Part shown: positions 57,001 through 60,000 of the stretch, piece by piece
Layout: the number at the start of each line of letters is the position of its first letter
Numbering within the stretch: the first letter of the stretch is position 1
Source of the DNA: Elusimicrobiota bacterium
GTDB taxonomy: Bacteria > Elusimicrobiota > Elusimicrobia > UBA1565 > JACRDR01
NCBI GenBank assembly: GCA_041694815.1
Contig: JBGFSC010000025.1
Span: forward strand, 1-64,000
Direction: 5' to 3'
Length of the DNA stretch: 64,000 bases
Position numbers: made by a program

Positions 57001-60000
57001 CTAGCCGCCAGCCTTGGCGTCTGGTTCCTGCTCCATTTTCCCCGGCCGCCGCAGATGGATTCCCTGAGCCCGGACGCCCGCATGCAGCATAGCCTCGCGG
57101 GGCGCATCGGGAAGGCACTGGAGCCGGTGTTCGCCCCGCTCGGCTTCGATTGGAGGATCAACGTGACGGTCTTGGGGTCGCTGGTCGCGCGCGAGATGGC
57201 GGTCTCGACCTTAGCACAGATCTACGCGGTCGAGGTCGAGCAAGGGGACGCCCCCCTCCGGCGCGTCCTGCGCGAAGGACGGGGCCCCGACGGTCGGGCC
57301 CTCATGACTCCCGCGACCGCCTTGGCCCTATTGGCCTTCTTCATCTACGCGCTGCAATGCACCTCGACGCTGGCCGTCATCCGAAGGGAAACCAACGGCT
57401 GGCGCTGGCCCGCCTTCGCCTTCGCCTATATGTTGGCCTGCGCCTGGATCGCCGGGAGCATCGCCTACCGCGTCGGCGCCGCCATGGGATGGAGCTGATC
57501 GGATGCCGGAATTGACCTATTTCGACCGCAATGGCCGGGCCGACTACGCCGAGCGCCTGCGCTCCGCCTTCCGGAAGCATCTCGAAAAAAACGGCCTCCG
57601 CCTGACCTCGCAGCGCCGCCGGATACTCGACTTCATGCTCCGCACGGAACGGCACGTCAGCCTCCAGGAGATTTACGAGGCGGTGCGCAAGTATGGCATC
57701 GGCCGCGTTACCGTTTTCCGCACGCTCAAAATGCTCGAGCAGGGGAGGCTGGCCGACCGCATCAGCAACGCGGCCGGGGGCTCGCGCTTCGAAATCAGGC
57801 TCGAACGCCCCCACCATGACCACCTCATCTGCATCGCCTGCGGAAGCATCCAAGAAGTCCGTTGGCCGCAGCTCGAACAAATCCAGGAGAAGGCCTGCCG
57901 AGACAGAGGATTCGAGATATCCTGGCACCGGCACGAGATATTCGGGCGCTGCAGCCGCTGCAGGCCACGCTGACCCCCCGGCCCGGAAACGATTTTGTAT
58001 AATCGGCCGGTGCCGAACGCTTCCCGCGGCAAAAATATAGCCTTCCTGCTCTCGGCCGCGGGGATATGCTTTCCCTGGCTTCTCGCGCGCCTGGGAGGCG
58101 CCGCATTCCCCCAGCCGTGGGCCGTATTTATTCCCGGACTTTGCATCCTAGGTTCCGCCTTCCTGTTGACTTGGGCGGCCGAGGCCGCGGAGGTCGATAT
58201 CCCGCAAGGGATCGCCATCGCGCTCTTGGCGCTCATCGCCGTGCTTCCCGAGTACGCGGTCGACGTGTATTTCGCGTGGATGGCGGGCAAACAGCCCGAA
58301 TACACCGCCTACGCGACCGCCAACATGACCGGCGCCAACCGCCTCCTCATCGGCGTAGGCTGGCCCTCCGTGCTGGCGGCCTCCTGGTGGAAATACGGCA
58401 AGCGCGCCATCCACATCAGCCAAGCCAACGCGGTGGAGCTCGTCACCTTGCTGGCCGCCACCCTCTACGCCTTCGCCATCCCGCTTAAATCCACCCTCTC
58501 GCTCGTCGATACCGCGATCTTCTTCCTGTTCTTCTGCCTATACGCGTACCGTTCGGCGCAGAGCCACGGCGAGCCGCCCGAGCTCGAGGGCCCGGCGGAG
58601 CTCATCGGACGCATGCCGACCGCCCAAAGGCGCGCGGCGATCATCGCGATGTTCCTCTTCGCGGCCGTCGCGATCTGCCTGTCCGCCGAACCCTTTGCCG
58701 AGGGCATACTGGACGCGGGGCGGCATTGGGGCATCGAGGAGTTCATCCTCGTGCAATGGCTCGCCCCGCTCGCCTCGGAGGCTCCGGAGTTCATCGTGGC
58801 GCTTCTGTTCGCGCTCAAAGGGAAGGCGGCGACGGCGCTGCGCGCCCTGGTTTCCTCGAAGGTCAACCAATGGACGCTGCTGGTCGGCATGCTTCCCTTG
58901 GCCTTCTCGCTATCGAGCCAAAGCCTGGCTCCGATGGCCTTAGACGCCCGGCAGACGGAGGAGATATTCCTGACGGCCGCTCAATCGCTGTTTGCCCTCG
59001 CCGCGCTCATGAACCTGGAGTTCACGATCAAGGAAGCGGTGGCCCTTTTCGGCCTCTTTACGATCCAGCTGGTCTTCCAAAGCCCTCAAGCCCGATTTTT
59101 GTTCGCCGGCTTTTACCTCGCCGGGACCGCGCTGCTTCTGGCGACGCAGCGCCAGCGCTTGAGCCGCCTGCGCGAGCTGGTGCTCTACGCCGTAAAACGC
59201 CAGAATGAGTTATAATTTAATCCCTAACGCGCCCATAGCTCAAAGGATAGAGTGTTGGCCTGCGAAGCCGAAGATCCAGGTTCGATTCCTGGTGGGCGCA
59301 ATTCTTTTCTTGCGGAATCGCCACGCCTCGCTCGGCCGCCCAGCGGCAGAACCGTAGGCCTCCGTCCGAGATTCCGCTAAAAATAACTGTTGTAATAATG
59401 TCCACGATATGTAATAATAAAAAGGCTTGACCAACGCCGCGCGCCGGTACTAGACTACATCGACTCCACATCCCGCAAAAAGGAAACGGCAAAAACATGG
59501 ACCAGAAAACCTTCACGACGTTCCAAGTCGCAAAGATCGCGGCGGTATTTCCAACGACCGTCATCAACTGGATCAATAAGGGAAAGCTGCCCGCGCATCG
59601 CACGCCCGGCGGTCACCGTCGCGTGCAGCTCGCCGACCTGCTGGCCTTCCTGCGCAAGTACAACATGCCCATCCCCGCCGGCCTCGACACCGGCGTCTGG
59701 GAGCGCAAGAAGGTGCTCGTCGTCGATGACGACCCGGTGGTCGGCACGATGTTGCGCAAGGCCTTCGGCAAATACCCCGAATTCTTCGACGCCCGGGAAG
59801 TTAGGGACGGCGTCGAGGCCCTGGTCCTCATCGGAAAATGGATGCCCGACCTGGTCATTCTCGACGCCGTGATGCCGGTCGTAGACGGGATGAGGGTCTG
59901 CGCCTCGCTGAAGGCGGACCCGCAGACTAGCGGCATCAAGATCATCGCCGTCACGGGCAAGAAGCTCTCCGACTCCCAACGACAGTACCTCCAGTCCAAC

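Follow-up and report, generated by a model that had tools for sequence, protein, structure and literature searches.

A tRNA-Arg(GCG) gene in a clade of Elusimicrobia without detectable TadA

The tRNA-Arg(GCG) gene and the arginine tRNA set

The window, by which we mean the whole stretch of 64,000 nucleotides of contig C19 that was analysed, carries a single tRNA according to ARAGORN. This tRNA-Arg(GCG) gene is located on the forward strand at positions 59229 to 59300 and is also recognized by Rfam RF00005 and by alignment with relatives. The RF00005 model matched untruncated over positions 1–71 of 71 with 69.9 bits, compared to a gathering score of 29. The tRNA has 72 nt, a variable loop of 4 nt and the T-loop UUCGAUU, and its CCA end is not encoded. 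Both the sequence itself and ARAGORN give GCG (59262 to 59264, forward strand) as the anticodon, which lies within the loop CUGCGAA with G34 at position 59262. The D-loop reads GGAUA, corresponding to A20. Both CUGCGAA and GGAUAGAG are kept in 11 of 11 aligned arginine tRNAs. E. coli ArgRS recognizes its tRNAs by the anticodon nucleotides C35 and G36 and by A20 of the D-loop. All three nucleotides are present here, as predicted for an arginine tRNA of the CGN box.

The neighbouring genes, taken from the ORF listing, are encoded on the same strand. Upstream, an ORF of 406 aa (57995 to 59215) with a Na_Ca_ex membrane-protein domain (Pfam PF01699, 89.1 bits) ends with its stop codon 13 nt before the tRNA and is functionally unrelated to the tRNA and to the TadA finding. 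The downstream ORF of 219 aa (59497 to 60156) was ruled out as a TadA-like gene, since it encodes an HTH-domain response regulator (PF00072, PF12728). A TadA profile built for the phylum, described below, matched nothing on contig C19.

The genome (G000) is a draft of 2,770,893 bases in 54 contigs, with 97.8% completeness and 62.9% GC. Throughout the whole genome, ARAGORN predicts 48 tRNAs with 44 different anticodons, and none of the 48 carries A34. The arginine tRNAs have the anticodons GCG (C19), CCG (C12, 58453 to 58524), UCG (C53, 1097 to 1171), CCU and UCU. A pattern search of the genome for tRNA-Arg(ACG) gave no match. Relaxing the ARAGORN threshold resulted in 218 predictions, including two ‘acg’ candidates, one of 91 nt and the other of 80 nt. 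Both were rejected as tRNAs, as RF00005 did not match either of them, even at E ≤ 10. The survey's finding of a sound tRNA-Arg(GCG) in a genome without any A34 tRNA is thus borne out by ARAGORN, RF00005 and the count of 0 in 48. Since A34 tRNAs are missing from the genome and its relatives, TadA would have no tRNA substrate. Among 1598 ORFs, the arginine codon shares are 50.2% for CGC, 24.4% for CGG, 7.2% for CGU and 6.8% for CGA.

The search for TadA and its look-alikes

With the NCBIfam TadA model NF008113, which has a curated cut-off of 150 bits, the best matches in the genome reached 88.6 bits (model positions 9–113 only), 67.7 bits and 56.5 bits, all under the cut-off. On its own, this cut-off fails to tell TadA from its paralogues, as true TadAs encoded next to a tRNA-Arg(ACG) gene score only 99.6–130 bits (G069, G010, G105 and G103). 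We used in addition a phylum-specific profile built from 27 TadAs, which scores its own sequences with 224–277 bits and a left-out TadA of family f10 with 200 bits. With filters switched off, a search of the six frames with this profile returned the same three proteins only (96.4, 88.3 and 40.4 bits), followed by a next match of 14 bits. The bit scores reported by the survey were reproduced, and the phylum profile agrees with the absence that it had proposed: the genome lacks a TadA gene.

Two of these proteins can be assigned to other deaminase families. The protein encoded on contig C54 matches the yeast cytosine deaminase structures PDB 1ysd and 1uaq with 125.9 and 125.5 bits over residues 6–143 of 144, and its best TadA match reaches 79.6 bits in the core only. 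HAE and PCxxC are present, and its ‘WNEDIG’ aligns to ‘WFEDIG’, the C-terminal W-x-E-D-I-G lid motif. We predict that it is an Fcy1-type cytosine deaminase. The C52 protein matches guanosine and guanine deaminases (5jfy, 102 bits; 7dbf, 99.7 bits; 1wkq, 92.7 bits over residues 6–155) and, over its full length, B. subtilis GuaD, compared to 74.4 bits over residues 6–104 for its best TadA match. On the phylum TadA profile it reaches 96.4 bits over positions 10–147 with the HAE and PCxxC motifs kept. It is predicted to be a GuaD/GSDA-type guanine or guanosine deaminase of the CDA fold. An orthologue of the C52 protein (49% identity, residues 7–159) is present in genome G144 alongside a true TadA of 177 bits, and in G361 an Fcy1-like match of 87.3 bits coexists with TadA. 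Because related proteins occur together with TadA in these genomes, the C52 and C54 types were rejected as TadA orthologues. The structure matches agree with the Fcy1-type and GuaD-type assignments that the survey had given to the look-alikes. In annotations, the name TadA should be avoided for the CDA-fold proteins of these genomes.

Distribution in the phylum and the number of losses

To place the genome among its relatives, 401 genomes of the phylum were used, of which 116 belong to other classes and 260 to the affected families of the class, namely those of one large clade (f1–f5, f8, f11, f13–f15) and f7. TadA with at least 150 bits was found in 125 of the 401 genomes: 102 of the 116 from other classes and 23 in families f6, f9, f10 and f12. 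No genome of the affected families (0 of 260) gave a match of this grade with NF008113. The distribution of tRNA-Arg(ACG) is similar, though the two do not coincide fully, with 124 of 401 genomes (101 of the 116 from other classes, 22 in f6, f9, f10 and f12, and one in f4); the lone f4 pattern match, in G247, lies at a contig edge beside a GCG gene. These counts were made with a wide pattern, as restriction to a variable loop of 4 nt left a match in only 1 of 401 genomes. In the order to which G000 belongs, tRNA-Arg(ACG) was found in 0 of 66 genomes and tRNA-Arg(GCG) in 77 of 86, the pattern having missed 9 of the 86. A stricter GCG pattern matched 91 of 123 f4 genomes, 53 of 55 f5 genomes and none of the 116 genomes of other classes; it demands AGAG in the D-stem and misses all 51 f3 genomes, and a corrected pattern matched 62 of 67. 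In f7, 5 of 9 genomes carry tRNA-Arg(GCG). In a BLAST search with the 72-nt tRNA-Arg(GCG), the ACG tRNAs of TadA-positive relatives were not recovered.

Three genomes of the affected families are single contigs (G064 and G241 of f4, G260 of f7), and all three carry GCG and UCG tRNAs and no TadA-grade match. With 0 of 260 genomes showing such a match, these three included, the TadA-less state is lineage-wide and no assembly gap. It is not a property of the whole class, as the survey had read it, since f6, f9, f10 and f12 keep TadA (23 genomes) and the ACG tRNA. One genome, G214 (f11), is nested in the TadA-less clade and has the GCG tRNA together with a TadA-like protein. The phylum profile gives this protein 136.8 bits; its HAE and PCPMC motifs are preserved, and its C-terminal helix does not align. 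This combination of a GCG tRNA with a diverged TadA-like protein possibly represents a state in between.

The tRNA-Arg(UCG) gene was found in 15 of 15 TadA-positive genomes of the order that contains f6 and f12. It is therefore older than the loss of TadA, and the survey's suggestion of an added U34 isoacceptor does not hold. The ACG tRNAs have variable loops of 5 nt. The f7 GCG tRNA has the same long body, with a 5-nt variable loop and the T-loop UUCAAAU, and in the compared set its closest relative is the f10 ACG tRNA (76%), which agrees with the expectation for an A34G change in situ. The short-bodied GCG tRNA of the large clade shows 81% to CCG and UCU tRNAs, versus 75% to the closest ACG tRNA. 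Remoulding of this tRNA from a CCG gene was considered and dropped, because all five arginine tRNAs of G000 have the 4-nt variable loop and the T-loop in common and because variable-loop length varies within isoacceptors.

An incomplete assembly, with tadA and tRNA-Arg(ACG) hidden in the unassembled part of about 2%, would be conceivable for a draft of this kind, and drop-outs do occur in such assemblies: five genomes of other classes (G015, G123, G141, G191 and G215; 85–100% complete) have an ACG tRNA and no TadA-grade match. However, a genome with an I34 tRNA would have no need of a G34 tRNA, and neither the absence of TadA-grade matches throughout the affected families and of tRNA-Arg(ACG) throughout the order nor the same state in the single-contig relatives is accounted for in this way, so that such an artefact is extremely improbable. 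It seems very improbable that A-to-I editing persists, with the C52 or C54 paralogue acting as a diverged TadA on another RNA such as mRNA. Editing of mRNAs by TadA is reported from E. coli (PMC5630033), and the motifs and the profile alignment of the C52 protein would be compatible with such a role. On the other hand, the best solved relatives of the C52 protein are guanosine and guanine deaminases and its G144 orthologue stands beside a real TadA, the C54 protein follows yeast cytosine deaminase from end to end including the lid motif, and there is no A34 tRNA to edit.

The number of losses was addressed with an RpoB tree, which represents one gene only (25 genomes, 1263 columns). It contains two clades with SH-aLRT values of 98 and 97 and needs at least two state changes. 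A single TadA-less clade was rejected by the AU test with p = 0.0127, for a group named after the tree had been seen. It appears from these sequences that TadA was lost twice independently in the class. The same two changes would also fit one loss at the class root followed by a regain of tadA and tRNA-Arg(ACG) in the lineage of f6, f9, f10 and f12. Both genes are adjacent in many genomes, so that one transfer could bring both. We consider this regain unlikely, as f10 shares the arrangement of the pair with no fewer than 16 families of other classes, a pattern that fits vertical inheritance, and the f7 GCG tRNA has the ACG-like body noted above. The side-by-side position of the ACG tRNA gene and tadA also means that one deletion could remove both. 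The genes flanking the pair in G144 map to different contigs of G000, and thus there is no conserved synteny between this locus and G000. Within 7 kb of the f7 GCG tRNA (locus L087), no TadA remnant was detected at E ≤ 1. Our literature search found nothing relevant on linkage of tadA and tRNA-Arg genes.

Decoding of the CGN box without inosine

The best explanation of our data, and in our judgement a very probable one, is that the tRNA gene of the window encodes the main arginine tRNA of a bacterium whose CGN codons are read without inosine. Both G34 in the mature tRNA and the lack of inosine are deduced from the DNA sequence. Under standard wobble rules, tRNA-Arg(GCG) would read CGC and CGU, tRNA-Arg(UCG) would read CGA and by wobble also CGG, and tRNA-Arg(CCG) would read CGG. 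The ancestor of the class would have possessed ACG, UCG and CCG tRNAs and TadA, with the ACG gene probably adjoining tadA. The existing UCG tRNA may have made reading of A by I34 redundant; a G34 tRNA would then have taken over CGC and CGU, after which TadA and the ACG gene could be lost. There would have been at least two such events in the class, one at the root of the large clade that includes this genome and one in f7.

Comparable systems have been described. In the Mycoplasma pneumoniae group of the Mollicutes, tadA and tRNA-Arg(ACG) are missing, and GCG and UCG tRNAs read CGN (Yokobori et al. 2013, PMC3711424). The genome studied here has the same combination. That study, however, describes the Mollicutes as lacking tRNA-Arg(CCG) as well, with reduced, AT-rich genomes and with a UCG tRNA that is modelled as a gain after the loss of tadA, whereas here CCG is kept, the genome has 2.77 Mb at 62.9% GC, and TadA-positive relatives carry UCG already. 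For the Thermotogae and Spirochaetes, tRNA-Arg(GCG) in place of ACG is reported from all sequenced members (Ehrlich et al. 2021, PMC8007984). Five major losses of TadA, in which the ACG tRNA disappeared and non-target tRNAs were gained, have also been described (Diwan & Agashe 2018, PMC6063277). As far as the text of these reports goes, the cases described there resemble the present one in being lineage-wide in free-living organisms with non-reduced genomes, with ACG absent, GCG and UCG present and TadA undetected. The present case differs in that it concerns another phylum, in that the loss is confined to part of a class, and in that there seem to have been two losses. Mention of Elusimicrobia was found neither in the article texts of PMC8007984 and PMC6063277 nor in the literature searched; this statement is limited to those texts, and the supplementary tables of PMC6063277 may list Elusimicrobium. 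Archaea, as summarised in PMC8007984, use G34 tRNAs in all four-codon boxes and have no A34 and no A34 deaminase. The CGN anticodon set GCG, UCG and CCG without inosine is like theirs, but here it occurs in a bacterium whose sister lineages retain the bacterial ICG system, and the state is derived, not ancestral. Two further parts of the survey's finding need revision in the light of these reports. TadA had been called essential, and it is reported to be dispensable in Bacillus subtilis (PMC10454642); the loss had also been presented as a second route besides the Mollicutes, and the Thermotogae and Spirochaetes (PMC8007984) and the major losses listed by Diwan and Agashe (PMC6063277) precede it.

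Our data indicate a real feature of the lineage, of a kind already in print for other phyla, and for that reason the general picture is unchanged. With it, the known bacteria without wobble inosine gain a large lineage that is free-living and GC-rich. The switch is clade-specific and not class-wide, and related families with and without TadA allow the order of events to be tested, namely a UCG tRNA that was already in place, followed by a G34 tRNA and finally by the loss of TadA. Whether inosine editing was dropped twice independently within one class, both times on a UCG-bearing background and from an ancestral tRNA-Arg(ACG)-tadA pair, seems to us an evenly balanced question. If this is true, the sister families would show the state before the loss (ACG, UCG and CCG tRNAs with TadA) and the affected families the state after it (GCG, UCG and CCG tRNAs without TadA), and the class would provide a natural series that orders the steps by which a near-universal tRNA-editing enzyme becomes dispensable.

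The tRNA-Arg(GCG) gene and the arginine tRNA set

The tRNA-Arg(GCG) gene at 59229-59300 on the forward strand was identified by ARAGORN and is the sole tRNA within the 64-kb window. The Rfam tRNA model (RF00005) matched this segment over its entire length with 69.9 bits (gathering score 29). In the sequence, the anticodon loop reads CUGCGAA and the D-loop contains GGAUA (A20). The stop codon of an ORF of the Na/Ca-exchanger family lies 13 nt ahead of the gene; a response-regulator gene and then a TPP-enzyme gene lie 3′ of it, and FeoB lies farther upstream. None of these neighbours is connected with tRNA editing. 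Three genomes of the same order each have the tRNA-Arg(GCG) segment in two identical copies (G292:C39, G328:C2 and G252, on C31 and C45).

The source genome (G000; 2.77 Mb in 54 contigs, 62.9% GC, 97.8% complete) carries 48 tRNA genes; their 44 different anticodons serve all 20 amino acids, and in the ARAGORN search of the whole genome none of the 48 has A34. A very lax threshold gave 218 calls; two of these, 91 and 80 nt long, were ‘acg’ candidates, and both were rejected, as neither matched RF00005 even at E≤10. The arginine anticodons are GCG, UCG, CCG, UCU and CCU. All five arginine tRNAs (C12, C19, C23, C36 and C53) have the same T-arm, GGUUCGAUUCC, and a variable loop of 4 nt, which hints at concerted evolution of the isoacceptors. 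Elsewhere in this genome, C38:57300-57372 (+) (locus L122:1-73) resembles the c-di-GMP-I-GGC riboswitch aptamer RF03167. The score of 48.8 bits does not reach the gathering score (59), and the match is truncated at its 5′ end by the boundary of the sequence examined.

Taking the gene set as observed and applying wobble rules, the G34 tRNA would read CGC and CGU, tRNA-Arg(UCG) would read CGA and could read CGG, and tRNA-Arg(CCG) would read CGG. These codons make up 50.2% (CGC), 7.2% (CGU), 6.8% (CGA) and 24.4% (CGG) of the arginine codons in 1598 ORFs. Since the three tRNAs would cover the CGN box, inosine would be unneeded and TadA, the deaminase converting A34 to I34, would be left without a tRNA substrate.

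TadA and its look-alikes in the genome

The TadA model NF008113 gave 88.6, 67.7 and 56.5 bits in G000, compared to its cut-off of 150. This cut-off is strict, passed by only 6 of 14 control genomes, and genuine TadAs adjoining tRNA-Arg(ACG) elsewhere in the phylum score down to 99.6-130 bits (G069, G010, G105 and G103). We therefore did not rely on it and constructed a profile from 27 of the phylum's TadA proteins; its member sequences reach 224-277 bits with it, and a TadA of family f10 that had been left out reaches 200 bits. Run with all filters off on the open frames of 40 aa or longer in all six frames, this profile returned the same three proteins (96.4, 88.3 and 40.4 bits) and nothing further above 14 bits. 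The G000 assembly contains no TadA, whether intact, broken or catalytically dead.

Of the three proteins, that on C54 (144 aa) aligns along its whole length (residues 6-143, C-terminal WxEDIG included) with structures of yeast cytosine deaminase at 125.9 bits, whereas its best TadA match reaches 79.6 bits in the core only; it was rejected as a TadA. For the C52 protein (159 aa), plant guanosine deaminase and B. subtilis guanine deaminase are the best matches (102, 99.7 and 92.7 bits), TadA reaching 74.4 bits. Its orthologue in G144, another genome of the phylum, is 49% identical over the full length and occurs beside a genuine TadA; the C52 protein is thus a paralogue, which rules it out as a diverged TadA. 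The remaining protein is RibD. The survey's finding of a tRNA-Arg(GCG) without any A34 tRNA or TadA in this genome was confirmed by ARAGORN, RF00005, NF008113 and the phylum profile.

Distribution across the phylum

We examined 401 genomes of at least 80% completeness, 285 of the class Elusimicrobia (G000 included) and 116 of other classes. TadA at 150 bits or more was detected in 125: 102 of the 116 from other classes, 23 from families f6 (10/10), f9 (4/6), f10 (8/8) and f12 (1/1), and 0 of the 260 in the remaining families of the class (f1-f5, f7, f8, f11, f13-f15). The other two f9 genomes show weaker or partial matches of 139 and 95 bits. A corrected pattern found tRNA-Arg(ACG) in 124 genomes: 101 of 116, 22 in f6 (9/10), f9 (6/6), f10 (6/8) and f12 (1/1), and one in the remaining families (G247 in f4); the reversed pattern gave no match in any genome. 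tRNA-Arg(GCG) was found by pattern search in 77 of 86 genomes of the order of G000 and in 5 of 9 f7 genomes, and with a stricter pattern in 91/123 f4, 53/55 f5 and 0/116 genomes of other classes. Inosine editing, proposed to have been given up by the whole class, would thus have been given up by G000 and its clade, but f6, f9, f10 and f12 keep both TadA and its substrate.

The TadA-less pattern could in principle come from incomplete assemblies; however, the single-contig genomes G064, G241 (both f4) and G260 (f7) carry GCG and UCG tRNAs and no TadA-grade match, so it is not an assembly artefact. Conversely, five genomes of other classes (G015, G123, G141, G191 and G215) have the ACG tRNA without a TadA-grade match; their congeners possess TadA, and they are most simply read as drop-outs. 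G214 (f11), nested within the TadA-less clade, carries tRNA-Arg(GCG) and a TadA-like protein of 210 aa (L088:5276-5908 (+), G214:C4, about 25275-25907) that reaches 136.8 bits with the phylum profile and 127 bits with NF008113. HAE and PCPMC are intact, whereas the usual motif EVPVGA is absent and the basic C-terminal helix is missing or not aligned; within this clade such a protein occurs in G214 alone, an assembly of 300 contigs, and the adjacent genes carry no clear lineage signal. In G247 (f4), an ACG-type tRNA-Arg segment lies at the extreme contig edge (C2:85-125) besides the genome's own GCG tRNA; dissimilar to those of relatives, it could stem from contamination or from foreign DNA. 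In G024 (f17), tRNA-Arg(ACG) is encoded twice; the second gene (L048, G024:C44) is short-bodied and is one of seven tRNA genes packed into 1.6 kb (Ser, Phe, Leu, Arg, Ala, Leu, Trp).

Probable number and order of the losses

An RpoB tree (25 genomes, 1263 columns, LG+G4, SH-aLRT support) divides the class into clade A (support 98), comprising f7, f9 and f10 with f12 plus f6, and clade B (support 97), comprising f8, f13, f15, f11, f1, f2, f3, f14, f4 and f5. TadA is missing from every clade B representative and from f7, which requires at least two changes of state on this tree. Enforcing a single TadA-less clade cost 30.8 log-likelihood units (AU p=0.0127), for a group chosen after inspection of this one-gene tree.

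The two probable losses are accompanied by two different tRNA bodies. The f7 GCG tRNA (L085, G312:C3:24032-24072, minus strand; also in G260, G235, G421 and G379) has a 5-nt variable loop and the T-loop UUCAAAU, as in ACG tRNAs, and is closest in the compared set to an f10 ACG tRNA (76%). This suggests that it arose by an in-place A34G change. In clade B, the GCG tRNAs are a separate group with 70-97% mutual identity, a 4-nt variable loop and UUCGAUU; that of the window's clade is short-bodied (72 nt), in contrast to the long ACG-type body of f7. tRNA-Arg(UCG), supposed to have been added at the switch, is already carried by all 15 TadA-positive genomes of the f6/f12 order. In another class it occurs in 11 of 41 genomes, but in none of the 25 that belong to f17. 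Because TadA-positive genomes carry it, the U34 isoacceptor predates the loss and was not gained as compensation.

Loss of TadA is not in itself new, and the idea of a second route besides Mollicutes does not stand, since Diwan and Agashe 2018 (PMC6063277) already report several major TadA losses, and Ehrlich et al. 2021 (PMC8007984) state that all sequenced Thermotogae and Spirochaetes have tRNA-Arg(GCG) in place of ACG. The former study surveys 1093 bacteria, compares sister clades for five losses of I-modification and names Spirochaetes and one proteobacterial class as unexplained cases. According to Yokobori et al. 2013 (PMC3711424), the M. pneumoniae group carries GCG and UCG without tadA, the same end state as in G000, and PMC10454642 reports TadA as dispensable in B. 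subtilis. Our literature search found no paper tying Elusimicrobia to TadA loss, and the word does not occur in the text of PMC6063277; nor did it find a description of the pairing of tRNA-Arg(ACG) with tadA in relatives. By hand count, 34 or more of the 124 ACG-positive genomes have the two genes within 2 kb on the same contig, often with the tRNA less than 100 nt upstream and in the same orientation. Examples are L007 (tRNA 1379-1454, tadA ORF 1474-1950), G144:C11 (48976 and 49730) and G031:C8 (80918 and 80978); ARAGORN confirmed tRNA-Arg(acg) in 7 of 30 TadA loci. The pair occurs in 17 or more families, f10 (6/6) among them, and was not seen in f6, f9, f12, f17 and f26. The new detail lies in two probable losses within a single class, a UCG tRNA that was there beforehand, and this substrate-enzyme gene pair in relatives, where one deletion could remove both.
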